DNA of 64,000 nucleotides from Candidatus Humicultor tengchongensis (GTDB lineage Bacteria > Sysuimicrobiota > Sysuimicrobiia > Sysuimicrobiales > Humicultoraceae). The notes under the pieces are model-generated. The model was not told the origin of the DNA. It saw nothing but the letters and a program-made list of their open reading frames with translations, and ran no database searches. Each line of letters starts with the position of its first letter. The first letter of the stretch is position 1. This document shows, piece by piece, positions 12,166-34,307 of this stretch. The stretch lies in NCBI GenBank assembly GCA_031459715.1, contig JAVKIA010000004.1, forward strand, positions 2,755 through 66,754, written 5' to 3'. Both the position numbers and the translations under genes were made by a program.

Positions 12166-13968
12166 CTACTCCTTCGGTCGCAGCAGGAGGCGCACAGGGT
12201 AATAGGAGCCGGCCGCGGGCATGGTAACGACGCCGACCTGCACGCTCTGCCCAGCCGGCACGGTGAGGGTACCAAGGACGCGCTCCTCGCCCGGCCGGTA
12301 GATGGCGATCTCCACCGGGCGGCCATCCACCAGGAAGGTTCCGCGCGCCGGACCGCCGGCGGCGACGGCCACCAGCTCCGCCTGCACCTCGGTCGGCCCG
12401 CCGGCCACTGTGAGCAGCAGGCGGTAGACGACGCCGTAGTCTCCCACCAGCGGCTCGGCCGTGCGCACGTCCTGCAGTCCGGCCGCCGCCCCCAGGTCCA
12501 CCAGGGGCACCGGCCCGCCCAGCTCCACCCGTCGATGGACGGTCACCGTGGGCAAGGGGAAGACGCCCCGGGGATGGGGGTAGGCCACCTGGTACACGGG
12601 CAGGGGGACCGTGCCCTCCAGCAGCCAGGGGAGGCGGACTTGCACCCGGACCTCGAGCTCCTCTCCCCGCAGCAACTGGAGCTGCAGGATACCCGAGACC
12701 AGCTGCCGGGGAGCCATCGTCTGGACGGTGAAGGCATAGGCGGAGTTTGGCGGAACCTCCAGCACGTAGCCCCGGCCGGCAGCCAGGTTCCGCAGGAAGC
12801 GCGCCGCGGCGGCATGCCCCACAAACAGAGAATCGGGGGAGGGACCGGCCAGGCCACTGATCAGCAGCATCTCTGAGGGCTGCGTGCTGCGGTTCCACAG
12901 CATAACGGAGAGGATGCGAGGGCACGCCGGGGTCCCGTTCATGTGGTGGTAGAGCAGGCGGATCGGGTGGCGCGCGTCTACCGCTTCGGAGAAGAGGATC
13001 CCGTCGGCGTCCACGACCTCGGGTCGGTTGCTCACTAACAGCAGTGCCGGATCCGCCACCTGCACCCGTTCCCGCAGCACAACCACGCGCGCCACCCCGT
13101 CCACCGGCAGCGCATATGGGCTGCGTACCACCACCGGGACGGCCAGCTCCACCCGGTCGGCGTCCGCGGCCATCCCCTCCAGGGACGGGAAGGGACCCAC
13201 GGCCAGCGTGGCCCCGGGCCCCCGGCGCACCACCTGGTCGATGCGCCGCCGTACCGCCTCCCTGATCAGTGCCGCATCCGTCAGGTCGCCGCTGACCCGT
13301 ACCGTAACCTCCTCGGGGATGGTTCCGGCAAGCGGTCGCACCACCACCGGCAGCAAGACCCGCCCTCCTCCCACGGCCACCGGCACCACCGTGGAGCCCA
13401 CCGCACGGGCCTCCACCACCACAGTGCCTCCTTCCACCCGCACAGAAGCGATGCGCCGGTCGAAAGGCCCAAGCCTCACCGCTCCCGGGAGGAAGGCCTG
13501 GACGGAGACGCTTGCCCTCTCTCCGGGCGAAAGCCGCAGCAGCGGCGGAAACAGACGGACGGTGTTGCGGGCCAGGGCCTGCTGCAGCCGCGCCGCCCAC
13601 TGCGCGGCCAGCGCCTCCGGGGTGGTCCGGTTGAGCCGCGCCAGCTCTCCGTCGGCAGTGACCAGGTGCCGCTCGTTCACCAGCAGGTCCGCGGCTCCGG
13701 GACGGGGGCGCACGGCGACGGTGTATGGGCCCCCCGCCGCTACCAGCGCGCCGAGTCGGCGCACCACTTCCGCCGCCCGCAGCGCCGCCCCCGGCCCGCG
13801 CACCCGTAGCACCACCACCTCCTGCAGGACGACCGCCACCGCAGGCTCCGCACCGGTCTGCGGGAGCAGACGCACCGGAGCCTCCGCCCTCCCCCCGGCG
13901 GCGAGGAGGGTGAGGCTCACCGTGCAGGCCAGGAGGGTCGTCAGAGGCAGCCGCAGGGACAGCATCAC
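12166..13968 (-). CDS. Hypothetical secreted protein (600 aa) inserted between lpxD and lpxC
   Basis: N-terminal signal peptide ([30 protein letters not shown]), then a long beta-rich, Val/Arg/Pro-rich sequence with no motif I recognise. Its coordinate spans overlap lpxD by 4 nt upstream and leave 16 nt before lpxC downstream, so it appears to sit in the lpx operon. Confidence 0.6.
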
Positions 13969-17128: not shown

Positions 17129-18430
17129 CTACAGGTTGCTGATCAGGCGCACCCAGTACTCGCCCCCCGACCTGCCGACAATCTCGCCGGAGAGGAATTC
17201 GGTGAAGCGGTATCGCACGCTCCCCTCCACCTGCTGGGCCGGCAGCAGGTATGCCAGGCGCACGCTCACATCCGGCCCCACCCGGTAGGTGACGAACCCG
17301 GTGACCTCCCCGGTGTTCAGCGTATAGGCCGCCCCCAGGTCCCAGACCGCATCCGGCGCGTAGCGCAGCCCCAGGTCGTAGCGGGCGGAGAGGGTGTTGG
17401 GCAGCAGCCCCACCTCGGCGAACGTCTCCAGGCGGCCGAAGAGACGGCCGAGGTGGGCCCGCAGTTCCGGACCCGGGGCCCGCGTGCCCACGTTGAGCTG
17501 CGCCTCGACCCGCCCCAGCCAGAGGAGCGAATCGGCCACCACGGTCACATACGTCGTCTCCCCCACGGAGAGGACGGGCCGGGCCACGACGCGGTACTCG
17601 GCCGCAGGTGGATATGCCCGCAATCGCTCTGCCAAAAGCCGCTCCAGCGTTTCGCGCTGCCCCTGGACGAAGGCGACGGGCAGTCCGCGGATGGGCCCGG
17701 CCATGGACAGGACCGCCGGGGCGTGCTGCTCCAGCAGGAGGAACGGGATGGAGCTGGAGCGGAAGCGCACGCCGATGTCCCGCACCACGCGGCCATCGCG
17801 GGGCAGGAGGTCCACATCCACTCGGGCCACCCTCCCCGCCCGCACCCGCGCCGCTCCGCTGAACCCGGGCAACGCCTCCTCTACGGCGCGGCGGACCTCC
17901 TGGGCGACAAGCGGCCCGGCCCAGTCCAGGGACTGCACCGGCAGGCCCACGAGCATTGCCCGCACAGCCGACGCCACCGCCTGCTGCACCGGCTGCAGGA
18001 CCAGGGGGGCCACGGCGGAATCCACGTCGCTGTGCGGGAGGACCTCGACCTCGTGGACCAGCGGCGGTGCGGGGCGCAGGCGCACCGCCACCACGGCGGT
18101 GGGCCCCACCTCCACGCGGGCCTCGGCGACGGTGTAGCCGCCCACCACCCGGTCCACCACTGTGGTCAGCGTGGCCCGCAGCTGCGTCAGGCCCGGACGG
18201 AGCTGGTCCACCGGGCGGCCGACCAGCAACCGCTGCGCCACCGTCTCCACGGTGCTCTGCAGGCGGGCCTGAACCACGGGGGGGACGCCGCCGTCCACGG
18301 CCAGGTGCACTTCCACCGCCTCGACCACCGCGCCGCTGGCTGCGGCCCACGGGACCAGCAGCAGGAGCAGGGCCAGGCTGCAGACCGCTCGCCCGGCCGC
18401 GGCTAGAACGGGTGTCCCAGGTTGAGCCAC
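17129..18430 (-). CDS. Hypothetical secreted/envelope protein immediately downstream of bamA (start uncertain)
   Basis: This is the frame of the 473-aa track ORF 17129..18550, which gives a coherent protein (signal-like AAAGRAVCSLALLLLLVPWAAASG, then Val/Arg/Ala-rich repeats). The overlapping 527-aa ORF 17088..18671 in another frame is compositional junk. A candidate GTG start at 18430 lies 28 nt inside the bamA 3' end. No family assignment. Confidence 0.45.
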   Translation of the reverse strand: MAQPGTPVLAAAGRAVCSLALLLLLVPWAAASGAVVEAVEVHLAVDGGVPPVVQARLQSTVETVAQRLLVGRPVDQLRPGLTQLRATLTTVVDRVVGGYTVAEARVEVGPTAVVAVRLRPAPPLVHEVEVLPHSDVDSAVAPLVLQPVQQAVASAVRAMLVGLPVQSLDWAGPLVAQEVRRAVEEALPGFSGAARVRAGRVARVDVDLLPRDGRVVRDIGVRFRSSSIPFLLLEQHAPAVLSMAGPIRGLPVAFVQGQRETLERLLAERLRAYPPAAEYRVVARPVLSVGETTYVTVVADSLLWLGRVEAQLNVGTRAPGPELRAHLGRLFGRLETFAEVGLLPNTLSARYDLGLRYAPDAVWDLGAAYTLNTGEVTGFVTYRVGPDVSVRLAYLLPAQQVEGSVRYRFTEFLSGEIVGRSGGEYWVRLISNL

Positions 18431-20331
18431 GTCTGGGTCCCGGCGGGGCCAAAGGCGAAGTCCAGGCGGAGCACGCCCAGGGGAGACCTGAAGGCCACGC
18501 CCACGCCGTAGTTGGCCACGAAACCGGGGGTGCTGAGCGCCGTCCCCCACGCCGCCCCGCCGTCGACGAAAACGATGCCGGTGAAGTCCTTGAAGAAGGG
18601 AGCGATGCCGCCAAGCGGCGCGCGGTACTCGACGTTGGCCAGCGCCATGGCGGTACCGCGGTACTGGCCACCGCTGAACCCGCGCAGCGTGGTGGGGCCG
18701 CCCAGGGCGAACAGCTCCTGCCCGGGGATGGCGCCGCTGCCCAGCCCGGCGCCGACCCGCCCCGCGATCAGGGATTCCCCGCCCAGGGGGATGTACTGGA
18801 CGTACTCGGCAAAATACTTCTGGAAGTTGAACTCACTGCCCAGCGGCGGCAGGGCGAACTCCAGGGAGAGCATCTGCCGGCTGCCTCGGGTGGGGTTGAT
18901 GCGGCTGTCCCGCAGGTCCCTGCTCCCGCTTACCGTCACCGACACTGTCCGCCCCGGGGAGAAGAAGGCGGGCGGAGCGCAGGGGTCGGGCGGGCAGGTC
19001 CCGCTGGGGTCGATGGGCAAGGGGGTGATGGCGGCGCGCTCCGAGCGCAGCCGCAGGCTCACGGTGGTGTGGGCGTCCATCGGCCGCATCACCTCAGCCA
19101 GGCTGCCGACCCGCTCCAGGTCGAAGCGGGCCGTCGTCGCCCCCCCGCTGACCTCAGTCTGCGTGGCCACGGTCTGGTAGAGGTTGAGGTCCAGCGAGGT
19201 CTGGTGTGGGTCCAGGAACGGCTCGCGGAAGCTCAGGACGAAGGTGAACTTGGCGGCCTGGGTTGCCGTGGGGGAGAAACCCCGCTCCGCCCTCAGGGCG
19301 ACGGTCTGCGCCCGTCCCCGCCAGTTCCGCTCCCGGTATGCGATCTGCCCCGTCAATCCTTCGGTGGTACTGTAGCCGGCACCGAAGCTGAGCTCGCCGG
19401 TGCGGGCCTCTTTCACTTCGATCTCGATGACGGCGGCCTCGGGGGTGGACCCTGGCTGGGGGCGGGCCTGTACCGACTCGAAGAGGCCCGTCTCGAAGAG
19501 GCGCTGCAGGTCGGCGTTCATCTGCCGCACGTTGAAGACGTCGCCCCGCTGCAGCCGCACATAGCGCCGGGCCACGGCGGGCCGGGTCTTGGTCAGCCCG
19601 CGGAAGACCACATCCTCCACCCGCCCCTCGGCCAGGCGCACGCGGAGCCGGCCGTCGTCCGCGGGGTCCAGCCCGATATCCACCACGCGGGCCAGCACAT
19701 ACCCCCGTTCTTCGTAGAGCTTCTCCACGGCGCGCACCCCGTCGCGGGCGCGCTTCGTGTTCAGCACCTCCCCCATGGGAATGTCCAGGGCCCGGACGAT
19801 ATCCGCCGTGGCGACCACCGTGTTGCCCTGCACCACCACCGCCACCACCCGCGGGTTCTCCACGACCAGGAAGACCACCCGCAGGCCCGCCGGGTCGGTC
19901 TCCACGCGGACGGAGACGTCGGCGAACCATCCCAGGTCTGCAATAGCCTGAACGTCCCGCCGCAGCTGCTCGGGGGTGGGTACATCGCCCACCTTGATGG
20001 TGACCACCGCCAGGATCTGCGCGGTGGGAATGTACCTGTTGCCCACCACCTCAACGGCCGCCACCCGCGGAGATGGCGTGGGTGAAGGGGCCGGTGTGGG
20101 CGATTGCGTCGGCGCCGGTGTGGGTGCAGGGACGGGAGCCGGTGCAGACTCCGGCGCGGGCGAAGGTGGGGGCACGGGCGACGGTGAGGGTACGGGCGAC
20201 GGTGACGGCGCGGGCGATGGCGCCTGCGCGTGGGAGGTGGAAATGATCCCCGGCGCCGCCAGTAGGAACAGCAGGGCGATCAGGGCACAGGACACATGAA
20301 GCGCGCAGCGCCGGCAGAGGAGGACAGGCAT
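18403..20331 (-). CDS. bamA: Outer-membrane protein assembly factor BamA (Omp85) with a Pro/Ala/Ser-rich linker
   Basis: 642 aa, in order: a signal peptide; a 51-aa low-complexity linker (PSPAPSPSPVPSPSPVPPPSPAPESAPAPVPAPTPAPTQSPTPAPSPTPSP); POTRA-like repeats (…VAAVEVVGNRYIPTAQILAVVTIKVGDV…); a beta-barrel with the Omp85 VRGF-like motif (TLRGFSGGQY); and a C-terminal aromatic residue (…WLNLGHPF). Confidence 0.85.
   Translation of the reverse strand: MPVLLCRRCALHVSCALIALLFLLAAPGIISTSHAQAPSPAPSPSPVPSPSPVPPPSPAPESAPAPVPAPTPAPTQSPTPAPSPTPSPRVAAVEVVGNRYIPTAQILAVVTIKVGDVPTPEQLRRDVQAIADLGWFADVSVRVETDPAGLRVVFLVVENPRVVAVVVQGNTVVATADIVRALDIPMGEVLNTKRARDGVRAVEKLYEERGYVLARVVDIGLDPADDGRLRVRLAEGRVEDVVFRGLTKTRPAVARRYVRLQRGDVFNVRQMNADLQRLFETGLFESVQARPQPGSTPEAAVIEIEVKEARTGELSFGAGYSTTEGLTGQIAYRERNWRGRAQTVALRAERGFSPTATQAAKFTFVLSFREPFLDPHQTSLDLNLYQTVATQTEVSGGATTARFDLERVGSLAEVMRPMDAHTTVSLRLRSERAAITPLPIDPSGTCPPDPCAPPAFFSPGRTVSVTVSGSRDLRDSRINPTRGSRQMLSLEFALPPLGSEFNFQKYFAEYVQYIPLGGESLIAGRVGAGLGSGAIPGQELFALGGPTTLRGFSGGQYRGTAMALANVEYRAPLGGIAPFFKDFTGIVFVDGGAAWGTALSTPGFVANYGVGVAFRSPLGVLRLDFAFGPAGTQTWLNLGHPF
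20095..20250 (-). repeat. Short imperfect tandem DNA repeats encoding the BamA Pro/Ala/Ser-rich linker
   Basis: Repeated units such as ggtgagggtacgggcgacggtgacggcgcgggcgatgg are visible on the plus strand. They lie within bamA codons. Confidence 0.6.
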
Positions 20332-20346
20332 CTCGCTGGATACTGC

Positions 20347-21051
20347 CTACCGGCGCTCCCCGCGAAGCGACCGCTCCGCTGCAATGACCAGATCGATGAG
20401 CTCGGCATCGGAGACCAGGGTGGGAGGCGCCGAGGTCAGGGTGGCCGCAGCGGCGGTCCGGGGTGTCGGCGCCGGCCTGGCAGCAGGCCGCATGGAGGGA
20501 CGCCCAACCCGCTTCACCTGCAGGGGCGACGCGACCCGCGCCTGCGGCACCACGCGCGGAATAGGGGCCGCGACGGCCGGCGGGGCAGCCGTCTCCTCCG
20601 GGGTAAGCACCGCCGGCACCAGCGCCAGCATGATGCCCGGCTGCCTGAACCTGACCACAGCGGGCGGGGGAGCCAGCCCGGGAGCCACCTCTACCCGGGT
20701 AGCCAGCAGCGACCGGCCGCCCAGGAGCAGGGCCAGCAGGGCAGCGGCGCCCAGCACCGTCATCACCGCCGGGGAGCGAGGAAGCACCTCCTCCCGTGCA
20801 GGGAAGGTGCGCTCGCGGGCGTGGTGCACCTCCGCTTCGGCCAGCAGCAAGGTGAGGATGCCGCGGGCGAGCCGCCCGTCCGTCACCTCCTGCCTGGCCC
20901 GGGCCAGCCACCGTTCGGCGAAGCCGATGTGGCGCACCAGGTGCTCCTGCGCAGCGTCTCGCTCACTGGCCTGTGATTGCACAGCGCCTCCCTCCTCAAC
21001 GGTAGCAGGCAGGCGAACCTTCCGATAGTTACTATCCGCAGGCGGCGCCAC
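20347..21051 (-). CDS. Putative membrane-anchored anti-sigma factor / hypothetical protein downstream of the sigma factor
   Basis: 234 aa with a cytoplasmic N-terminus, a single TM (VMTVLGAAALLALLLGG) and a Pro/Ala-rich extracytoplasmic tail. It lies 35 nt downstream of the sigma gene in the same orientation. The anti-sigma function is inferred from context only. Confidence 0.4.
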   Translation of the reverse strand: MAPPADSNYRKVRLPATVEEGGAVQSQASERDAAQEHLVRHIGFAERWLARARQEVTDGRLARGILTLLLAEAEVHHARERTFPAREEVLPRSPAVMTVLGAAALLALLLGGRSLLATRVEVAPGLAPPPAVVRFRQPGIMLALVPAVLTPEETAAPPAVAAPIPRVVPQARVASPLQVKRVGRPSMRPAARPAPTPRTAAAATLTSAPPTLVSDAELIDLVIAAERSLRGERR

Positions 21052-21085
21052 TCAATCGCATATCGGCTGCAGCACTCCCGCGCGG

Positions 21086-21715
21086 TCAGGAGGTCTCCGG
21101 CCGCGGCGCCGAGGGGTTCAGCGCAGCCCTGACCCGGGCGATAGCCTGCTTCTGCAGCCGGTAGAAGTGGGAGAGGCTGATACGCAGCGCACCGGCCACC
21201 TGTCGTGGGTCCTGGCGGGTGAGGAACGCCCGCAGGATGGCCCGCTCCCGCCCCGGGAGGTCGGCCACGACCGCCCGGATCTGCTCGTAGAGGACCCGAT
21301 CCTCCACCCGCAGCAGGGAGAGCTCCGCCTCCAGGTCGCCCAGCGCACCCCCCGGCACCAGTTCCTCCGCCAGGAGCTGGTCCAGGGAAAGCTCGCCGGT
21401 GCGGCGGGCGAAGGCGTTGAGCATGCGGCCGCGAATGCGGTAGGCAGCGAAGGTGCTGAAGCGGACCCCGCGGCCCGGGTCGAAGCGCTCCACCGCCTCG
21501 ATCAGGCCCACTGTCCCCTCCTGAATCGTGTCCATCAGGAGCGCCTGCGGCGGACGCAGCTGCATGGCCAGCTTGAAAACCAGCGGCTGGTAAGCCTCGA
21601 TCAGGCGGAGGCGACTGGCCGCATCGCCGCTGCGGTACTGCGCCCACAGCCCTGCCTCCTCATCGGGGCGGAGCAGGTTGACCTTTTGGAGCTCACGCAG
21701 ATACTCCTCAAACAT
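21086..21715 (-). CDS. Sigma-70-family RNA polymerase sigma factor (group-3 / sporulation- or FliA-like size)
   Basis: 209 aa with region 2 (LIEAYQPLVFKLA…DTIQEGTVGLIEAVERFDPGRGVRFSTFAAYRIRGRMLNAF) and a region 4 HTH (RQVAGALRISLSHFYRLQKQAIARVR). Confidence 0.75.
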   Translation of the reverse strand: MFEEYLRELQKVNLLRPDEEAGLWAQYRSGDAASRLRLIEAYQPLVFKLAMQLRPPQALLMDTIQEGTVGLIEAVERFDPGRGVRFSTFAAYRIRGRMLNAFARRTGELSLDQLLAEELVPGGALGDLEAELSLLRVEDRVLYEQIRAVVADLPGRERAILRAFLTRQDPRQVAGALRISLSHFYRLQKQAIARVRAALNPSAPRPETS

Positions 21716-21799: not shown

Positions 21800-24700
21800 T
21801 CAAAAGCGGAGGGTGTACTGGAGCAGGGCGCCGCTCCGGCCGGCGTTGTCCACGGAGAACGCCAGCATCACGTTGCGCAGGAAGCGCCACTCCAGGGACC
21901 AGACGAAACGGGTCTCCTGCTCGAAGATGGTGGTCAGCCGCAGGTAGAGGTCGCGCACCAGCAGCCGGCCCACGCGCAGTTGCAGCGGCCGGGCGAAGTC
22001 GTACTGCACGGTGAACTCGCCGAGCCCCAGAGCGCGGGCGATGGCCGCCTCCACCCCGCCGAACAGCGCCCGCCCCAGCTCGGCCCGCAGCAGCGCCTGC
22101 ACGTCGGCACCTGGCTCTGCCACCGCGCCACCGGCCAGTAGCCCGACGATCTGCTCCCGACTGTGTGGGGGATCCGACCGCAGGACCACCCGGTCGACGA
22201 TCTCTTCGGGGAAGACCTGCCGCGCTTCCAGGAAGACCTTGGTGGTGCTGCCGTCCGCCAGCAGGAGGTCCGTCTCGGCATCCAGCGAGATCAGGGGGCG
22301 CATCCCCAGCTGCGGGAGGAAACGAGCTTCCCCTTCGCGCAGGGTGAAGGTGCGACCGAACACGGTCACCGCTCCCCGTTGCGCCGTCAACCGTCCGGTG
22401 ACGCTGGGCTGGCGTAGGGTCCCGCCCACGGAGAGCGTATCTCCCGGGGCAAGCTCCACGCGCATCCGCCCCAGGTGCACGGTCAGGTCCTCCCCGCTGG
22501 TCAGGCGCAGGTCGCGCAGGCGCAGGTCCGGGCCCCGGGAGGCGGCCTGCCGCCCTGGCGCGGGCAGCAGCCCCAGGGCGTCCAGGTCGCCCCGCTTCAC
22601 CGTCACCTCCCCGGTCAGCTCGGGCGGGGCCTGCGCACCGGTGAGGGATCCGGTGAGGACGAGGTCGGCATCCACCGCCCCGGTGAAGAACGGCGGCGCC
22701 TCGATCCGGGCGTCGCGCGCCCGCACCGCCAGCCGCTCCACCCGGTCCGGTCGGAAGTGGGCGATGGCCACAGACCCCGTGGCCTCCAGCCTCCCCTCGC
22801 CCAGGCGGGCAGTGAAGGATGAGAGCGAGAGGCGATCCTGGCTGAAGCTGATCCCGGCCTGCACCGCCTCCAGCGGGGGGTTCAGGCCGCGCAGGCGGAT
22901 GTGCCCGTCACGCACGGTCATCCCGCCGCTCATTACCGGGCGGCCGGGGGTCCCTGAGAGGAGCACCTGCCCCTCCAGCCTGCCGGTGGACTCCTGCACC
23001 GGGGGGAGGAGCAGCGCCAAGATGCTGAGGTCGGCCTGCACCAGGGAGACTTCAAAGCGCATGGGCCGTTCGGCCAGGACCCCGCGCCCCGGGCCAAGAG
23101 GGATGACCCCCACCCCCTTGACCCGGTGCCCGTCCTGGCTGAGCAGCGCCTGCTCCACGTGGAGCTGCCCGTCCCGGTAGAAGGCGTTCGCCACCAGCGA
23201 GTCGAACCGCAGGCCGTTGACGCTGCCGCGGCGCACGTCCAGGGACAGCCCGACCTCCGGGTCCTGCCAGCGGCCGTTGATCTGCGTGGTGAAGGTGAGC
23301 GTGCCGGCCAGCGGCCGCTCCGGGCGCAGCAGCGGCCGGAGCAGCGCCAGGTTCAGGTCGGTGCCCCCGACCTCCAGCTGGCTATCCCCGTGCAGTACCA
23401 CCTGCCCCCGCGCAGCGAAGATCCCCTCTCCGGAGCGCCCGCGCAGCCTGTCCACCCTGACCACGTCGTTGCGGAAGCTGAGCCCGACGTCCACTTCATC
23501 GATGGGCTGGTCGCCCAGCCTACCCCGGGTCAGGCGCGCCTGCAGCGCCGCCGACGGGCGGGCCCGCGTCCCCTGCACCGTGACGATGCCGTCGAGGCGC
23601 CCATCCAGCGGGACCGGCGCCCGCAGCCGCCCCAGGGAGAGCAGCGTGGCCAGGCTGCCGCGGGAGACCTCACCGTGCAGGTCAAGCACAGGGGGGCGCA
23701 ACCCCAGGATCCCGCGGACGGTGTATGTGCCCTCGCCCTGGGAGAGCGTGACGGGCTCGAGGGCCAGCCGGCCAGAGGCCCAGCGCACGACGCCGTCGGC
23801 GCGGTCGAACGGCTGCCGGTTCAACACCAGGTCCCGCGCCGAAAACGCGGCCACTACCGCCGGATCAGCGGCGGTGCCCTCGACGCGCCCCTGCAGGTCC
23901 AGGTGCCCTGCCATCTGGACCACCTCAGCGGGCAGCGCGGTCAGGTGCTTCAGGTCCAGGTCCCGCACGGCGAAGCTGAGGCTCAGGGCTCCCGTCCGAT
24001 CCACAGTGCCGCGCGCCGTGAGCACGGAGTCCCCCACGCGGGCGCGTAGCGCCTCCAGGGTCAGCGCTCCACCCTGCCAGCGAAACGTGGCCGCGGCTTC
24101 GTCTACCCGCTGCCTCTGGACGCTGCCCTCGAGCAGGGTCACCCGGCCGCTGGCCAGGGGCCGGGTCACCGTTCCTCCGACGGTGAGCCGGCCGGAGAGG
24201 CGGCCGGTGAGGTGCAGCGGCACGGCGGCGGAGCGGATCAGGCTGGCTGCGGGGATGCCCTCTGCCTGAACCGTGAGTGCCACGGAAGATGGGTCTTTCC
24301 ATCGCACCGTTCCCGACACCAGGTAGGTCCCCCTCCCCTCCCGCAGCACCAGGCCGGGCGTGGCCAGGGCGTGACGGGACACCCGCAGCGGCCCCTGTGC
24401 GCTGTCGAACTCCAGCGAGGCCAGGGTCCCGGGGCCAGAGAGGACGGTGCCGTTGAACACTGGCTCGGACCGCGTCCCGGTTACCCTCCCGGCAGCCTCC
24501 ACCGTCGCCTGCAGGCGCGGAGGCGCCCCGATCTGGCGAGCGACCTCCCGCAGGTCCAATCCGGTGGCCGCGGCGTCGACATCCAGTATGCCCCGGCGCG
24601 AGACGGAGCCTGCTGCACGCAGCACCGTCTTGCCGCGGCCGGCGACGAGATACGGGAAGGCGACCTCGGCGTCCGCGTACCACCCGCCGGCGCGCAGGTA

Positions 24701-26263
24701 GTCCACGTGCAGCCCGCCGGCCTGGCCCGGGCCCATCCTCCCCGCAGCCTCCGCGAACAGTGCCTTGGGGGCGCGGCCCAGCACGACGCTCCCCTGCAGC
24801 CGACCGCTCAGGGGGAGGCGCAGCCCGGCACGGGCCAGCAGCTCCGGCGGGAGGTTCTCGACCTCCGCCGCGGCCAGCAGCGTCCCGCCGCTGCCCATGG
24901 CCAGGCGCAGCTCGCCCTGCAGGCGGGCGTCTCCTGCCACCGCGGTGACGTCCCGCAGGACGAGGAGGTCGCCCAGGAGGGAAAGCCCCGCCGACTCCAC
25001 GGCCACGGGCTGTCGGTTCACCGCGCCACGAGCCCTGATGATCGTCCCCTGAATCAGCGGAGCGGACCAGGAGCCGGTGATGCGCACGTCCGCGCCCGTG
25101 GTGCCCTCAAGGCGGACTCGCGCTGTGGGGAAGAGGAGGCGCTGCACCGCGGCCAGGTCCAGCCGCGGCGAGGTCACCACCAGGTCCAGCCGGCGGCCGA
25201 AGCGCAACGCCGCTTCCCCGCGTAGACGTAGCCACGACCCATCGACCTTAAGGCTCAGAGCGTCGGTAGCCACACGGTCGTTGTCCACACGGAGCAGGCC
25301 GGACATCCCGTACAGGCGGGTCCGCTGCGGCAGCAGCGTTGCCGCCCCGTCCACAAGGCGCACGCTGCCCCGGTAGTCCAGAGTACGCCTCCCTCCCCAC
25401 GGCGCCCTCAGCAGGTGGAGTTGCGCGTCCGCTGCCCCCCCGGTGAAGACCAGGGCTGGCGTGCGCACGAGGTACGGCCCCCACTGTACCAGGGGGGCGC
25501 CCTCCGCCCGCAGGTCGGCGTCCAGCACGCCGCGGTCGAGGAGGTACCTCCCCTGCAAGGTGACCGGCGTGCGCCTGCCCGTGTGCAGGCTGACCAGAGC
25601 CGCCTCCAGCTCCACGGTCGGCGCCAGGCGGAAGTCTGCCCGGCCGCTGACCTGGACGAAACGCGCGCGGAACGGATACGGCGGCCCGGAGTGGTCGGTG
25701 AGAGTAACCCTCCCATCCCGCACGACGACCAGAGGCGCCAGGCCCGCGCCCTTCATGGCCGGGGCACCCGGCTGGGCTACCAGGTCCAGCACGTTCCACC
25801 GCCCGGCGGAGGAGATCTCCAGCCAGATCTCCGGACGGACCAGGGTGATGGTGGTGATGCTGCGCAGGACACCGCGGCGGCGCAGCAGGTCGCCCAGCAG
25901 GGCGGCGGGACGGAAGGAGACGACGATCTGCGCGGCCGTAATGATGGCACCCTCGGCCGTGGGCTCTCTGCGGCCGACGGTCACCCCTTCAAGGACCACG
26001 CCTCGCAGCGGGTCGCCGCGCAGGGCGCCGATCTGCACCGGCCGCTGGAACTGGCGCGCGGCCGCCGCCTGCACCGCCCGGCGGGCCTGCTCGTGCAGCC
26101 GCCCCGAAGTCGCGACGGCGTACAGGACGGCTCCGCCCGCGGTTAGGAGGACAACGGCCAGGACGAAGGATCGACGAAACATGGGCGGCTTGGCTCCACC
26201 AGACACTATGCCCTGCTGTCCTGAAAACGGAACTCTGCGCCCGCCTTTCAGAAAAACGGCCAC
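21800..26263 (-). CDS. tamB: TamB/AsmA-like translocation-and-assembly module protein (1487 aa)
   Basis: Giant ORF with an N-terminal TM anchor (FRRSFVLAVVLLTAGGAVLYAV), a long repetitive beta-rich body and a DUF490-like C-terminus (…FTVQYDFARPLQLRVGRLL…SLEWRF). It lies directly upstream of the sigma gene, anti-sigma candidate and bamA, on the same strand. Confidence 0.8.
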   Translation of the reverse strand: MAVFLKGGRRVPFSGQQGIVSGGAKPPMFRRSFVLAVVLLTAGGAVLYAVATSGRLHEQARRAVQAAAARQFQRPVQIGALRGDPLRGVVLEGVTVGRREPTAEGAIITAAQIVVSFRPAALLGDLLRRRGVLRSITTITLVRPEIWLEISSAGRWNVLDLVAQPGAPAMKGAGLAPLVVVRDGRVTLTDHSGPPYPFRARFVQVSGRADFRLAPTVELEAALVSLHTGRRTPVTLQGRYLLDRGVLDADLRAEGAPLVQWGPYLVRTPALVFTGGAADAQLHLLRAPWGGRRTLDYRGSVRLVDGAATLLPQRTRLYGMSGLLRVDNDRVATDALSLKVDGSWLRLRGEAALRFGRRLDLVVTSPRLDLAAVQRLLFPTARVRLEGTTGADVRITGSWSAPLIQGTIIRARGAVNRQPVAVESAGLSLLGDLLVLRDVTAVAGDARLQGELRLAMGSGGTLLAAAEVENLPPELLARAGLRLPLSGRLQGSVVLGRAPKALFAEAAGRMGPGQAGGLHVDYLRAGGWYADAEVAFPYLVAGRGKTVLRAAGSVSRRGILDVDAAATGLDLREVARQIGAPPRLQATVEAAGRVTGTRSEPVFNGTVLSGPGTLASLEFDSAQGPLRVSRHALATPGLVLREGRGTYLVSGTVRWKDPSSVALTVQAEGIPAASLIRSAAVPLHLTGRLSGRLTVGGTVTRPLASGRVTLLEGSVQRQRVDEAAATFRWQGGALTLEALRARVGDSVLTARGTVDRTGALSLSFAVRDLDLKHLTALPAEVVQMAGHLDLQGRVEGTAADPAVVAAFSARDLVLNRQPFDRADGVVRWASGRLALEPVTLSQGEGTYTVRGILGLRPPVLDLHGEVSRGSLATLLSLGRLRAPVPLDGRLDGIVTVQGTRARPSAALQARLTRGRLGDQPIDEVDVGLSFRNDVVRVDRLRGRSGEGIFAARGQVVLHGDSQLEVGGTDLNLALLRPLLRPERPLAGTLTFTTQINGRWQDPEVGLSLDVRRGSVNGLRFDSLVANAFYRDGQLHVEQALLSQDGHRVKGVGVIPLGPGRGVLAERPMRFEVSLVQADLSILALLLPPVQESTGRLEGQVLLSGTPGRPVMSGGMTVRDGHIRLRGLNPPLEAVQAGISFSQDRLSLSSFTARLGEGRLEATGSVAIAHFRPDRVERLAVRARDARIEAPPFFTGAVDADLVLTGSLTGAQAPPELTGEVTVKRGDLDALGLLPAPGRQAASRGPDLRLRDLRLTSGEDLTVHLGRMRVELAPGDTLSVGGTLRQPSVTGRLTAQRGAVTVFGRTFTLREGEARFLPQLGMRPLISLDAETDLLLADGSTTKVFLEARQVFPEEIVDRVVLRSDPPHSREQIVGLLAGGAVAEPGADVQALLRAELGRALFGGVEAAIARALGLGEFTVQYDFARPLQLRVGRLLVRDLYLRLTTIFEQETRFVWSLEWRFLRNVMLAFSVDNAGRSGALLQYTLRF

Positions 26264-26392: not shown

Positions 26393-28225
26393 TCAGCGCA
26401 CATGAATGGGGACCCGGAACTCCCCCTGGATCACCCAGTTGGTCCGGATCAACCGGCCGGCGAAGACGTCGAACTTAGTGAACTCCGCTCCGGTCGCCGG
26501 CAGGCCGAAGGGGACCAGGCGGATCAGGATCTGGTTGTTGGTCCCCAGGCTCTCAAAGATCTCCACCGCCTCCTCCAGGGTGTCCCCGGGGAAGGGGGGC
26601 TGCTCGGTGAGCAGGTCTCGTACGATCACGTCTTCCGGGCTGGTTCCAGTCAGGTCGATCCCCGCCGAGCTGACGAGGAGCACCGCCGGGCCCCGCGGGT
26701 AATTCCGCGGCACAGGGACCTCGATGACCCGAGAGACCTGCTGGTCCTGCTGGTAGGGGCGGACGGTGATCCGGACGCGGATGGTCCCTCCCGGGTCGAC
26801 CTCCCGTGTCTCCGCCTCAACGTTGGTGATCTCCGCTGTCTCCCGCTTGCGGGAGAGGGTCATCTCCACCTTCAGGTCAAACGGGTCCAGGTCGGCGAAG
26901 GGATTGAAGAAGAGGAACTGGACTGCCGTGGAGATGTCCAGTACTGAGGCCAGGGCCACGTCCTGCTGGCTGTAGAAGATATTCTCCCGGGAGATGACTC
27001 CGGGCAGCCGCCTGGCGCGCACCGCCATCTTTACCCGGGCCGACCCCTCCCCCTGGACCTGGTCGCGTCCCCGCTCTGCGGCGACGAAGGCCACCAGGGG
27101 CGCGAAGAGGCGCACCAGATCGGCGCGGCGCACCACCTGGGCCGCCCGGCTCACCGTCTTTCCTGAGTCGGCGTCGTTGACGGTGACTCGGACGGTGAAC
27201 ATGCGGGGGAACTTCCCCACCAGGCCGCGGATGCCTGGCCCGCGGTCCTCGTCGATCTGCCCGACCAGCGGTCCCAGGTTGCCCTCCAGGAAGGGACGCT
27301 GCAGCGTCTGCACCACGGTGACGATCTCGGCGGTGGTCAGGCCGTAGGCCACCGACCCCAGGTTCTCCCAGGGGTGACCGCAGATGAGCAGCTTGCTCCC
27401 CACCCGCAGCGTCGTGGTGCAGATGCCGCCGAACTCCACGTCGCCCAGCACCTGGAGGATCCCCACCGGCGAGCCGGCGCGGATCTGCGCCGCCTCCCCG
27501 GCGGCCTGCCCTCCGCCATACTGCACCAGCGGCCGCTGGGCCAGCCGCTCGCCCATCACCTTCTGCAGGAGGGTGAAGGCGCGGGGGGTCAGGCCTCCGG
27601 CCAGGGTCACCGGCTGCGCCGGGAGGAAGGCCAGGGTGCCGGGCAGTGCCGCCGCCTGGCGGGCCTGGGCGGGAGTGCGGGCCACCACCACCCGGTGGAC
27701 CGGCTTCCCGTCCACCACCAGCGGGGTGGTGGGGGAGAAGACGGTGGGCCAGGGAGCGGCTGCAGCCTGCGGCTGCTCCAGCAGCGGCAGCATGTACTCG
27801 ATGGGGGTGCCCAGCCCCAGGTCCTTCCTGGTCTGGAAGAGATAGCTGGCGCTGTGGGCGCCCACCAGCTTCCCGTTGATGTACAAGGGGCTGCCGCTCA
27901 TCCCCGCAGCGGTGCCGCCTGTCTGCTCCATCAGGGGGCCGTAGGTCCGGTAGAGAATCAGGTGCTTCACCGGGATGGCGCCGCCACCTCCCGCCAGCAG
28001 CGCCATTACCTCGAAGTTGAACTCCGCGATCTGCGGGCTCTTCACCGTGGTCCGGCCCACGCCCCGCATCCCCGGCTTGATCTCCGCCACCTTCATGATC
28101 GGGGGCAGCCCCTCCTGGGCGCTGCCCACCGCCGCCGGCGGCAGGAGGACCGCCAGGGCCAACCCGCATACCATGACCGCTCGCCACACACGTGTCACGT
28201 CCCTCTCTCCTCTCTCACTCCCCAC
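26393..28225 (-). CDS. SpoIVB-like peptidase S55 family protein (610 aa), secreted
   Basis: Signal peptide, then the S55/SpoIVB-type serine motif GMSGSPLYINGKLVG, and a long C-terminal extension. It is the gene immediately upstream of tamB. Confidence 0.6.
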   Translation of the reverse strand: MGSERGERDVTRVWRAVMVCGLALAVLLPPAAVGSAQEGLPPIMKVAEIKPGMRGVGRTTVKSPQIAEFNFEVMALLAGGGGAIPVKHLILYRTYGPLMEQTGGTAAGMSGSPLYINGKLVGAHSASYLFQTRKDLGLGTPIEYMLPLLEQPQAAAAPWPTVFSPTTPLVVDGKPVHRVVVARTPAQARQAAALPGTLAFLPAQPVTLAGGLTPRAFTLLQKVMGERLAQRPLVQYGGGQAAGEAAQIRAGSPVGILQVLGDVEFGGICTTTLRVGSKLLICGHPWENLGSVAYGLTTAEIVTVVQTLQRPFLEGNLGPLVGQIDEDRGPGIRGLVGKFPRMFTVRVTVNDADSGKTVSRAAQVVRRADLVRLFAPLVAFVAAERGRDQVQGEGSARVKMAVRARRLPGVISRENIFYSQQDVALASVLDISTAVQFLFFNPFADLDPFDLKVEMTLSRKRETAEITNVEAETREVDPGGTIRVRITVRPYQQDQQVSRVIEVPVPRNYPRGPAVLLVSSAGIDLTGTSPEDVIVRDLLTEQPPFPGDTLEEAVEIFESLGTNNQILIRLVPFGLPATGAEFTKFDVFAGRLIRTNWVIQGEFRVPIHVR

Positions 28226-28333
28226 GCTTCCGCGCCGGGTTGGAAAAAAATTCGGGAAGAGAGGACCTCTCCCCTACGCCGCGGACCTGTGCCCCTGGAT
28301 GTCACACCACCGTCACCCCGGCGGGAAACTTTC

Positions 28334-28642
28334 TCACCTGGGCCGCAGGTGGGCGACCACCATCCCCCGTTCCCGGATCTGCTGCCCCGGGCGCACCAGC
28401 ACCTCCACCACCGTGCCGTCAGCGGGCGCGCGGGCGGCAACCGCCCTGCCCACCAGGGCACGGACGTAGACCAGGGGGTCGCCGTCGCGCACCTCCTGTC
28501 CGGGCCGGACCAGGCCGTCCGCCAGCACCTCGCCCGTGAGGGTGGCCCGCACCTCCAGCACACCCGCCGCAGCCGCAGCGGCCGAGGCCAGCGGCAGGAG
28601 CAGCGAAACGCCAAGGACAAGGATGCGCACCGGTCTCCTCAT
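28334..28642 (-). CDS. Small secreted protein with a biotin/lipoyl-attachment-like (HlyD-type hybrid) beta domain
   Basis: 102 aa with a signal peptide (MRRPVRILVLGVSLLLPLASAAAAAAG), then …GEVLADGLVRPGQEVRDGDPLVYV…APADGTVVEVLVRPGQQIRERGMVVAHL, a lipoyl-like hammerhead pattern. Confidence 0.5.
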   Translation of the reverse strand: MRRPVRILVLGVSLLLPLASAAAAAAGVLEVRATLTGEVLADGLVRPGQEVRDGDPLVYVRALVGRAVAARAPADGTVVEVLVRPGQQIRERGMVVAHLRPR

Positions 28643-31987: not shown

Positions 31988-33346
31988 TCACCTGCCCACC
32001 CGGCTGTGCCGGATTACCCGCGCGGGGACCCCCACGGCCACGGCGCCGGCGGGGACGTCCCTGGTCACCACCGAGCCCGCACCCGTGCTGGCCCCCCTGC
32101 CGATACGCACCGGCGCCACCAGCATGGTGTCGCTGCCGATGAAGGCCTCGTCCTCGATGACCGTGGGCCATTTCTTCCCGGAGCGGTCGCGCAGGTTGCA
32201 GGTGATGGTACCCGCGCCGATGTTCACCCGCTCCCCCACGGTGGCGTCCCCCAGGTAGGACTTGTGGTGCACCTTGGTCCCGTCGCCGATGGTGCTGTTC
32301 TTCACCTCGGCGAAGTTGCCGATCTCCACCCGCCGCCCGATGCGCGAGCCGGGGCGGAGGTGGCTGTAAGGGCCGACGCGGCTGCCCTCGCCCACCGTAG
32401 ACTGCACCACGGTGGAGGCCACCACGGTCACCCTGTCGGCGATGACGGCATCAACCAGGCGGGCCTGCGGACCGATGGTGCAGCCGCGACCGATGCGGGT
32501 CTGCCCTTCCAGGGAGCTGCCCGGGTGGATTACCGTCTCCTCCCCCACTACCACCCCCGCGTGGATGTAGGTGGCCTGGGGGTCCACCACGGTGACGCCG
32601 CCGTCCATGAGACGCTCCAGCAGCCGGGCGCGCATGGCCGCCTCCGCCCGGGCCAGATCGCGTCGCGAATTCACGCCCAGCACCTCCAGGGGGTCGTCCG
32701 CCGCCAGGGCGTCCACCCGGGCGCCGACCCGCAGCGCCCAGGCGACGACGTCGGTCAGGTAGTACTCGCCCTGGACATTGGCCGGCCGCACGTGTCCCAG
32801 CCCTTCCCGCAGAAGGGCCAGGTCGAAGACGTAGGTGCCGGCATTGATCTCCTGAATGGCCCGCTCCCCAGGGGTGGCGTCGGCCTCCTCCACGATGCGC
32901 TGCACCCCTCCGCCGGAGTCGCGGAGGACGCGGCCGTAGCCGGTAGGGTCGGACAGGTGGGCCGTGAGCAGGGTGATCCCGGGCCGGGCGTCCTCATGGT
33001 GCGACACCAGGCGTCGCAGCGTCCGGGCGGTGAGCAGAGGGACATCCCCGTAGAGCACCAGCACGGCCTCCGCCTCCTCCACCGCCTGCAGCCCCACCAG
33101 CACCGCGTCTGCTGTCCCTTTCTGCTCTGCCTGCACGACGAAGGAAGCACCGTCGCCGACCTCCGCCTGTACCGCCTCTGCGCCCCGGCCGACGACCACC
33201 ACCGGCTGGATCAGGCCCGCCTCTTCCAGGGTCGCCAGGACGTAGCGGACCATCGGCCGCCCGCAGATGGGGTGCAGAACCTTGGGAAGGCTGGAACGCA
33301 TGCGCTTGCCCACGCCGGCGGCAAGGACGATGGGACGGACGGTCAT
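31988..33346 (-). CDS. glmU: Bifunctional GlmU (GlcNAc-1-P uridyltransferase / GlcN-1-P acetyltransferase)
   Basis: The true start is the ATG at 33346 (MTVRPIVLAAGVGKRMRSSLPKVLHPICGRPMV…). It has an N-terminal nucleotidyltransferase domain plus a C-terminal hexapeptide acetyltransferase domain. The 737-aa track ORF is an N-terminal over-extension. Confidence 0.9.
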   Translation of the reverse strand: MTVRPIVLAAGVGKRMRSSLPKVLHPICGRPMVRYVLATLEEAGLIQPVVVVGRGAEAVQAEVGDGASFVVQAEQKGTADAVLVGLQAVEEAEAVLVLYGDVPLLTARTLRRLVSHHEDARPGITLLTAHLSDPTGYGRVLRDSGGGVQRIVEEADATPGERAIQEINAGTYVFDLALLREGLGHVRPANVQGEYYLTDVVAWALRVGARVDALAADDPLEVLGVNSRRDLARAEAAMRARLLERLMDGGVTVVDPQATYIHAGVVVGEETVIHPGSSLEGQTRIGRGCTIGPQARLVDAVIADRVTVVASTVVQSTVGEGSRVGPYSHLRPGSRIGRRVEIGNFAEVKNSTIGDGTKVHHKSYLGDATVGERVNIGAGTITCNLRDRSGKKWPTVIEDEAFIGSDTMLVAPVRIGRGASTGAGSVVTRDVPAGAVAVGVPARVIRHSRVGR

Positions 33347-33548
33347 CTGTGGAAGGCCTTTACGGGAACCTCCTGCCGCACAGAAGTTCTTGACCCCCCG
33401 GAGCAATCCTTCCCCAGCCCGCCGCCCCCCGGCGGCAGGTCTTCCGCCAAGCCTGACGCCGCCGCAGCACCGGCACCGCTTGCCGCCGGCGGGAAATCGG
33501 CTATCCGCCCGATAGCGGAGCCTTACCGCCATTTCTAAACTCCACGGC

Positions 33549-34090
33549 GTGCGCGGGCTTGCTGCTGCGGTCATCGTCTTGCTGCTTTCCGCCTTGAACT
33601 TCCCGGCATCTGCCGGCGACGATTCCGCGCGTCCTGCCTCCCTGGAGGAGCGCATGGCCGGGCTTGCGGTGCGCACTGGCGCCCGGGCCGTGCTGCTCCT
33701 GCTGTGCTGCACGCCCTGTCCCGTCAGGAGGTAGGCGTTCGCCACCAGCCCGACGCATTGGACCGGGCACTGGCCGCCAGCGCCTACGCCCGGCTGGCCG
33801 AGGAGATTGCGGCGGCCATGGGTGAGGCCCTGCGCGACTTGGGACACCCGGTGCTGGAGTCGCTGGCGGAGGCAGCCGGCCGGCTGCTGGACGACCTCGT
33901 TACCTTCGTGGAGGGAGCGGACTTCATCGGCGAGGACGCCCGAGAGTGGACAGCTTCCGACCTGCTGGCCCTGGCCGCGGGGTCGGGGTCGCGCAGCGAG
34001 ACTCTCTACCTGCTGTACAACAACCGGAATGGGGATACCGGCGGGTACGCTGTGGACCTGACGGTGACCGCCCGCCAGGCCACGCCGTAG
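33549..34090 (+). pseudogene. Small secreted hypothetical protein split over two frames (possible frameshift or two tiny ORFs)
   Basis: The 33549..33734 ORF encodes a signal peptide (MRGLAAAVIVLLLSALNFPASAGDDS…). The 33704..34090 ORF (GTG start, another frame) continues with a soluble domain. The two would join across a ctgctcctgctgtgctgc repeat tract. This is the only plus-strand coding signal in a 200-bp interval flanked by minus-strand genes. Confidence 0.35.
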
Positions 34091-34307
34091 GCAGGACCGG
34101 GGCGAAGGGCCCCTGGCCAGGATCCCGGTAAGGAAGCGCTTTGGGCACAGGCAGAAGCGTGGCTGGGGGGGCAGGCTTCGATCCTGCGCTGCCGGAGTCA
34201 AAGTCCGGTGTCCTCCCGATTAGACGACCCCCCAGCGCACCTGTATTGTCCTGAGGAGCGGGAAGCCGGTCAACCCCTGGGGGCCCGGTGGGGCGGGCCC
34301 GTCCTCA

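Follow-up and report, generated by a model that had tools for sequence, protein, structure and literature searches.

We analyzed a 64,000-nucleotide stretch (hereafter the window) of the Candidatus Humicultor tengchongensis contig JAVKIA010000004.1 and, within it, the gene for a secreted protein related to the sporulation protease SpoIVB (peptidase family S55), which stands directly upstream of tamB at the head of an outer-membrane (OM) gene cluster. The window has a G+C content of 69–74%, and nearly all of its genes lie on the minus strand. The maximal open reading frame (ORF) at the locus, 26393..28225 on the minus strand, encodes 610 aa when counted from the first GTG at 28225, and its high third-position GC (0.91) indicates that it is coding. 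The true start is probably the GTG at 28198, because this codon directly follows GGAGAGAGGG and because close homologues are 601 aa long; it gives a 601-aa protein, and all residue numbers of the protease refer to that frame. As read from the translation, the N terminus carries a putative Sec-type signal sequence, MTRVWRAVMVCGLALAVLLPPAAVGSA. A terminator-like hairpin lies just upstream, between the protease gene and a small gene, consistent with the protease gene heading a transcription unit (coordinates of all features are given in Table 1).

An earlier note on this DNA had recognized a SpoIVB-like GMSGSP motif in a secreted protein, and profile searches bore this out. The protein passed the threshold of the Pfam Peptidase_S55 model PF05580 with 32.5 bits against a cut-off of 25 (E 1.2e-7), and a precomputed PF05580 hit was present in all but one of the 120 close homologues listed. 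When the first β-barrel was aligned by hhalign to a SpoIVB alignment, the E-value was 1e-15. The sole sequence match in the PDB was the SpoIVB structure 9LNF (E 5e-6), of which only the C-terminal ~100 residues were matched; with a whole-family profile, again only the C-barrel of 9LNF was found. The solved SpoIVB structure is also the one to which the fold is nearest, and a Foldseek search of the PDB with the full model returned only half-domain matches to HtrA, 3C and SGPB proteases (E ~0.02). The note had allowed for a coincidental motif; given that the PF05580, 9LNF and hhalign matches are all significant, we take GMSGSP as a true signal of homology, not a chance match. Its statement that this is no canonical SpoIVB also holds, since the score against the SpoIVB equivalog model TIGR02860 was 36.2 bits, short of the cut-off of 305.25. 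On these comparisons the protein is assigned to the S55/SpoIVB-like proteases without being a SpoIVB orthologue.

Several features separate the protein from SpoIVB of B. subtilis. Genuine SpoIVBs match the PDZ models PF17820, PF00595 and PF13180, and their PDZ domain lies N-terminal to the protease domain, whereas Pfam detected no PDZ domain in the window's protease at E ≤ 1, nor in 10 diverse relatives at E ≤ 10. SpoIVB has 426 aa, as against 601 aa here with an extra C-terminal module of ~265 aa, and its context is sporulation rather than OM biogenesis. Proteases of the HtrA family (DegP, DegQ, DegS) have the normal barrel order and a C-terminal PDZ domain, share no family-level sequence relationship with the protease; unlike its gene, theirs do not head tamB/bamA.

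The note had remarked that the motif sits unusually near the N terminus. Indeed, in its natural order the PF05580 match covers only profile positions 112–210 of 210, and a colinear full-domain match is absent. In an alignment of 26 family members, another invariant block appeared ~170 residues beyond the serine: FGGICT...LICGH275PW...IDxD318RG. Its consensus across phyla is GD(V/I)xxxA(I/L)GT(L/V)T(Y)...(A/G)FGHPF...QDRxxG(I/V)xG, and it resembles the SpoIVB segment around His236 (GIGTMTFY...GALGHVI...NRNSPFGIFG). In SpoIVB the histidine comes before the serine; here the serine comes before the histidine. The S55 domain is therefore circularly permuted, with the Ser101 barrel first, then a linker, then the barrel that bears His275 and Asp318. 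In an un-permutation test, artificial constructs in which residues ~228–334 were moved ahead of residues 30–146 were scored against Pfam S55. Seven of 10 diverse members then gave one continuous match over profile positions 13–210, at 54–67 bits, as compared with 42–50 bits for the first barrel alone and 41–50 bits when the N-terminal segment was reversed, indicating that the true second-barrel segment contributes +13 to +16 bits. The window's own protein rose from 36.5 to 39.0 bits, a smaller gain, with the match reaching only profile position 81. Two separate Pfam S55 stretches were present in six of 10 natural full-length relatives. In the reverse test, the second barrels of 150+ diverse relatives were made into a hidden Markov model (HMM), which was run on 120 real SpoIVB sequences. 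Its best match fell at SpoIVB residues ~215–301 in 119 of them (mean 6.3 bits, minimum 4.2), as against a mean of −2.2 bits and a maximum of 2.3 for reversed or shuffled decoys.

Other results support the permuted order weakly or not at all. Compared by hhalign with 13 Bacillaceae SpoIVBs, the second barrel aligned to region 214–300, with its histidine on His236, at a weak P of 0.046. An HMM of Bacillaceae SpoIVBs only recovered the second barrel in eight of 157 relatives, none of them significantly, a failure that we attribute to the narrowness of that model. Moreover, the second barrel was modelled with low confidence (predicted local distance difference test 40–56). When only the second-barrel region or only the C-terminal 374 aa was scanned with Pfam, no match was returned, because the second barrel is too diverged for the HMMER filters. 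The permutation explains why a SpoIVB domain is recognized only by "half" in automatic annotation, and no description of a permuted S55 domain was found in the literature searched.

The span between the barrels varies from 75 to 277 residues across the family; in the alignment of Negativicutes, the linker is shorter than in the window's protease, at ~50 residues. Pfam scans of the linker gave neither a PDZ nor any other match, and hhalign found no match of the linker and the C-terminal module to SpoIVB, its PDZ domain included. A reading of the linker as a PDZ domain, drawn from the predicted order of strands and helices, was rejected on account of the missing PDZ profile match and the ~50-residue linker of Negativicutes. 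The long C-terminal extension described in the earlier note thus holds in part: residues ~335–601 are family-specific, but the first ~190 residues of that extension are the variable linker and the His-bearing half-domain.

Conservation was assessed in 158 sequences, comprising 149 representatives of 50%-identity clusters, eight Negativicutes proteins and the window protein. Among aligned residues, Ser101 was conserved in 157/157, His275 in 156/156, Asp318 in 154/154 and Asp253 in 152/156. The distance from His275 to Asp318 is 43 residues in 145 of the 158 sequences, close to the spacing of His57 and Asp102 in chymotrypsin. In both the hhalign and the reverse HMM comparisons, the His275 region aligned to SpoIVB residues 214–301, which include His236, and in the hhalign alignment an Asn of SpoIVB stands opposite Asp318. 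We infer that Ser101 and His275 would lie near each other in the folded protein. For SpoIVB there is no agreement on the third catalytic residue: Asp363 lies ~24 Å away from His236, and Thr393 is an alternative candidate (PMC12502668). By contrast, the protease here has a strictly conserved Asp 43 residues after the His. Judged by this pattern, the family appears to consist of active proteases that are strongly constrained, with a predicted triad that is possibly more canonical than that of SpoIVB.

To place the gene, we mapped the proteins of the window onto the ORFs of 81 related loci, using local phmmer and iterated HMMs. The protease gene was directly upstream of tamB or bamA in 45 loci of the source lineage and in 22 distant loci. 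Within the source lineage it directly preceded tamB in all loci whose contig runs past the protease gene, and the same arrangement was found in two more loci with precomputed annotation. Among the distant loci, 18 (Halanaerobiales, Limnochordia and other Bacillota) had the gene directly upstream of tamB and four had it upstream of bamA. The Negativicutes loci read small barrel-sandwich gene, S55, mlaE, mlaF, mlaD, tolC, tamB, bamA, so that, unlike in the window, mlaEFD-tolC stands between the protease gene and tamB. Synergistales and Riflebacteria resemble Negativicutes in that mlaE, mlaF and mlaD come right after the S55 gene, and in all three groups MlaD is long (~450 aa). What stays the same throughout is that the gene lies at the 5′ edge of the cluster and directly precedes a system of OM biogenesis that spans the envelope (TamB, Mla or BamA). 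Three more metagenomic contigs from the search of cluster representatives described below repeat the pattern. Two of them come from diderms that carry spoIIID and hence probably sporulate; the order there is M23, SpoIIID, Mbl, flagellar rod/L/P-ring genes or NAGPA (DUF2233), S55, (TamB), BamA, Skp, LpxD. NAGPA also precedes the S55 gene in Riflebacteria, and Vpar_0519 of Veillonella parvula is a DUF2233 protein. Separately, a ~100-aa barrel-sandwich gene directly precedes the S55 gene in both Sysuimicrobiota and Negativicutes and forms a conserved pair with it.

These comparisons bear on the claims of the earlier note about context. Its neighbours were as described, with TamB directly downstream, then the extracytoplasmic function (ECF)-type sigma factor and BamA, and with the protease heading the cluster. 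Its tie to the cell envelope rather than to the σK checkpoint is borne out by the conservation of this placement across several two-membraned phyla of the Bacillati (Terrabacteria), and the comparison it proposed with Limnochordia and Negativicutes placed the gene upstream of tamB in the former and of mlaEFD-tolC-tamB-bamA in the latter. The link to the sigma gene fails as a general feature, because the clusters of Halanaerobiales, Limnochordia and the Veillonella locus examined keep the protease and have no sigma gene.

The family is widespread. When 1.84 billion cluster representatives were searched exhaustively with a profile, 2018 clusters reached E ≤ 1e-30 and 6519 reached E ≤ 1e-3. A protein 100% identical to the window's protease, P0001, comes from a metagenome-assembled genome labelled "Armatimonadota bacterium". 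Among relatives with names, those of Candidatus Geohabitans, Calidihabitans, Fervidifonticultor and Thermofontivivens are nearest; Fervidifonticultor is placed in the phylum Candidatus Sysuimicrobiota (CSP1-3) of the kingdom Bacillati. In species-representative genomes, tblastn found full-length relatives with 27–34% identity over ~480–580 residues. They occur in Halanaerobiales (Natroniella, Fuchsiella, Frackibacter), Negativicutes (Colibacter), Limnochordia, many uncultured Bacillota, Synergistota and Riflebacteria, and phmmer E-values to the Negativicutes and Halanaerobiales proteins ranged from 1e-59 to 1e-73. The Colibacter protein is ~30% identical to the window protease over residues 13–514, and that of Veillonella montpellierensis is 55% identical to the Colibacter protein. 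The window copy represents a Sysuimicrobiota-specific subtype marked by GGTAAGMSGSP and CGHPW and by two invariant cysteines, C260 and C273, near His275. In many Sysuimicrobiota loci, a second, tandem S55 paralogue lies between the window-type gene and tamB; the window has none. This paralogue keeps the triad and has the look of the general family (GGIAAGMSGSP, AFGHPFLN). There are also family members of 1.2–1.5 kaa in which the permuted protease is fused to a β-propeller (Reg_prop/SGL-like) and bacterial Ig-like (immunoglobulin-like) domains; one such gene adjoins a threonyl-tRNA synthetase gene.

The protease family carries an annotation already and receives brief mention in two papers; no characterization of it was found in the literature searched. 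Vpar_0521 of V. parvula, reported to have an N-terminal SpoIVB domain and good conservation among diderm Firmicutes, was detected in whole-cell, OM and surface fractions and named an important target (PMC5491611). In that species tamB is Vpar_0526 and bamA is Vpar_0527 (PMC5491611), and the five-gene offset equals that of the V. montpellierensis locus exactly, which identifies Vpar_0521 as the orthologue of the protease. Vpar_0521-type proteins of Negativicutes and Halanaerobiales share the permuted architecture and the OM cluster with the protease here, and in Negativicutes the small upstream barrel-sandwich gene is present as well. A study of the V. parvula Mla system did not analyze the protein further (PMC10665443). 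In Acetonema longum, the peptidase S55 domain protein F7NM31 was one of just two proteins that co-eluted with BamA (PMC13018214).

The cluster downstream of the protease is a complete OM/lipopolysaccharide cluster of the diderm-Firmicutes type, here in a Sysuimicrobiota genome. In minus-strand order, GlmU, Prs, a glycosyltransferase (GT) of family GT4, UDP-GlcNAc 2-epimerase, the small barrel-sandwich protein and the hairpin precede the S55 protease. TamB, the ECF sigma factor, a single-pass anti-sigma-like protein, BamA, an unassigned 473-aa protein and three Skp/OmpH proteins follow, then LpxD, an unassigned 600-aa protein, LpxC, FabZ, LpxA and LpxB, and finally an LptB-like ABC ATPase, LptF/G, a GT2 glycosyltransferase and DUF3084. 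Such a cluster, down to the DUF3084/COG4372 gene, has been described for Negativicutes and Halanaerobiales (PMC5007114); the paper describing the phylum Sysuimicrobiota makes no mention of envelope or sporulation. No recognizable sporulation genes were present among the annotated genes of the 64-kb window, and spoVG was looked for between ridA and glmU and not found.

The pair formed by the ECF sigma gene and the single-pass gene with a Pro/Ala-rich tail, between tamB and bamA, recurs in every Sysuimicrobiota locus examined as well as in soil contig L085. The sigma factor homologue in locus L001 also has region 4, and a homologue follows tamB in the Negativicute Colibacter. In Halanaerobiales, Limnochordia and the Veillonella locus examined, the cluster is without a sigma factor and the protease is kept in all. 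The single-pass gene stands where the bamA operon of Acetonema has SonB, which is described with a transmembrane helix; SonB might be an anti-sigma factor. The secreted 473-aa protein between bamA and skp has no Pfam match and a β-barrel-like C terminus; its homologues were confined to the source lineage, and it stands where Negativicutes have SonA (three POTRA domains and a 10-strand barrel). Between lpxD and lpxC, the 600-aa ORF looks strongly coding and matches no Pfam model. The reading frame of GlmU stays open for ~280 codons upstream of its likely start, its homologues being 453–470 aa long, and neither this extra stretch nor an overlapping plus-strand ORF had a PDB match.

Table 1. Features of the protease gene, the window and related loci (window positions unless a locus, L, or family member, P, is named).
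Feature	Position	Strand	Basis or remark
Permuted S55-type serine protease gene, 601 aa	26393..28198	-	stop codon included; homologues and alignment
Signal peptide, residues 1-27	28118..28198	-	reading of translation; hydrophobic N terminus kept in alignment
First β-barrel, residues 30-146	27761..28111	-	homologous to C-terminal half of S55 domain
GMSGSP motif, residues 99-104 (108-113 in 610-aa ORF)	27887..27904	-	Ser101 codon 27896-27898
Linker/insert between barrels, residues 147-239	27482..27760	-	conserved GLSPRA motif; length variable
Second β-barrel (predicted), residues 240-334	27197..27481	-	homologous to N-terminal, His-bearing half of S55 domain
Putative catalytic codons, second barrel	His275 27374-27376; Asp318 27245-27247	-	residue conservation
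Family-specific C-terminal module, residues 335-601 (~265 aa)	26396..27196	-	alpha/beta and Ig-like beta-sandwich elements
Terminator-like hairpin, then T-run	28254..28274	-	between upstream small gene and protease gene
Small secreted protein, 102 aa, barrel-sandwich (lipoyl-like) domain	28334..28642	-	weak Pfam hits
OM/lipopolysaccharide cluster	1159-26263	-	
TamB homologue, 1487 aa, directly downstream of protease	21800..26263	-	Pfam TamB E 2e-31
ECF-type sigma factor	21086..21715	-	Pfam Sigma70_r2
Single-pass membrane protein, Pro/Ala-rich periplasmic tail, candidate anti-sigma	20347..21051	-	translation; conserved position; no Pfam match
Sigma/single-pass pair	20347-21715	-	
BamA, POTRA domains and Omp85 barrel	18403..20331	-	Pfam
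473-aa secreted protein	17129-18550	-	
600-aa ORF	12166-13968	-	
GlmU ORF	31988-34201	-	
ORF overlapping GlmU ORF	33704-34090	+	
Tandem S55 paralogue	L006 11790-13748; L017 5434-7194; L019 7093-9036; 13 further loci		
Long β-propeller members	P0429, P0434, P0411, P0482, P0504; L082 190-4644		
S55-mlaEFD loci	L073 11658-14631; L071 11856-14788; L081 11884-14748		
M23/SpoIIID/Mbl and NAGPA neighbourhoods	L084 203-9974; L086 1215-7076; L071 8365-9990		
~100-aa barrel-sandwich gene before S55 gene	L081 9695-9985; L066 9281-9967		
Sigma/single-pass region elsewhere	L066 20676-21380; L085 14819-16343		

We infer a role in envelope assembly or signalling from the gene neighbourhood and from the two published proteomic observations. 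Overall, the best explanation, which we hold to be fairly probable, is a periplasmic protease that serves the TamB/Mla/BamA machinery. Under this explanation, a secreted serine endopeptidase of chymotrypsin fold, with SpoIVB (S55) as its closest known relative, would work in the periplasm at or near that envelope-spanning machinery. The enzyme would there process or remove proteins, such as OM proteins that have stalled or misfolded or components of the machinery, and its role could be likened to that of DegP or BepA of Proteobacteria, in lineages without BamB-E lipoproteins. The family-specific C-terminal module might act as a docking or substrate-selection element. A number of points detract from this explanation. 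The activity, substrate and localization proposed for the protease here are predictions. The co-purification of F7NM31 rests on three peptides, and its authors hold that no stable accessory protein exists (PMC13018214); that F7NM31 is the same cluster gene is suggested only by an accession near those of SonA (F7NM22) and SonB (F7NM24). The long β-propeller members sit outside OM clusters, and the adjacency could in part be an inherited boundary, with mbl and flagellar genes beside the OM cluster, that has no functional link.

This last point leads to the view that the enzyme is a general periplasmic or secreted housekeeping protease whose place beside tamB or mla merely reflects an inherited synteny block. 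In L084, L086 and L081 the gene does lie where mbl/flagellar-rod genes meet the OM cluster, long β-propeller paralogues occur in unrelated contexts, and the immediate downstream neighbour varies by lineage (tamB, bamA or mlaE). We nevertheless regard this view as unlikely, since that neighbour is always an OM-biogenesis gene, the adjacency persists across Sysuimicrobiota, Bacillota, Synergistota and Riflebacteria despite rearrangements, and a relative was detected in the OM fraction and another co-eluted with BamA (PMC5491611, PMC13018214). Only slightly more credible, and still improbable, is a site-1 protease that would cut the periplasmic tail of the anti-sigma-like protein and so free the ECF sigma factor to induce the bamA-skp-lpx genes, by analogy with DegS acting on RseA/σE and SpoIVB acting on SpoIVFA/pro-σK. 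The conserved pairing of the sigma factor and the Pro/Ala-tailed protein in the Sysuimicrobiota loci examined and L085, and the sigma homologue after tamB in Colibacter, fit such a role, as does the fact that SpoIVB, the closest characterized relative, is a signalling protease (PMC12502668, PMC6581720). However, the cleavage is hypothetical, no PDZ sensor domain was detected, and the protease heads the cluster in Halanaerobiales, Limnochordia and the Veillonella locus where the pair is lacking, so that sigma signalling cannot be its core function. A catalytically dead scaffold or a chance motif match, with which the low confidence of the modelled second barrel would agree, is very improbable: Ser, His and Asp are conserved at every aligned residue across the 158 sequences, clustered at ≤50% identity, and the profile and structure matches are significant. 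Hardly credible at all is that the protein is the organism's canonical SpoIVB in the σK sporulation checkpoint. It shares GMSGSP and the Pfam S55 match with SpoIVB, and the Prokaryotic Genome Annotation Pipeline (PGAP) names its relatives "SpoIVB peptidase S55 domain-containing protein". Yet the TIGR02860 score, the missing PDZ match, the swapped barrels and the length all disagree with that identity, as do the sporulation-free annotation of the window and the placement of the protease gene inside the OM cluster in the spoIIID-carrying diderm contigs. Orthologues also occur in Veillonella, Megasphaera and Synergistota, which are not known to sporulate.

The permutation, the strictly conserved Asp318, and the wide and constant placement at the head of the cluster, with tamB and mlaEFD alternating downstream, appear to be new. 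A wider proposal, which we offer tentatively and consider doubtful, is that the permuted S55 protease is an ancient dedicated TamB/BamA (and Mla) accessory of diderm Bacillati, and that SpoIVB is a later, re-permuted and PDZ-fused spore derivative. SpoIVB would then have taken up signalling across the intermembrane space of the forespore, a periplasm-like compartment, and the Sysuimicrobiota enzyme may in addition trigger the ECF sigma factor of its cluster. Diderm Firmicutes and their relatives are without BamB-E lipoproteins, TamA and Lol, and how the OM is built there bears on models of the diderm-to-monoderm transition. A strictly conserved protease with intact Ser, His and Asp, encoded by the first gene of the tamB/mla-bamA-skp-lpx cluster in several phyla, is a good candidate for a missing OM-assembly factor. 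The permutation supplies concrete catalytic residues (Ser101, His275 and Asp318), and the hypothesis is directly testable, Veillonella parvula being genetically tractable. The finding would also tie the origin of SpoIVB, a key checkpoint protease of sporulation, to the envelope machinery that diderm ancestors possessed.

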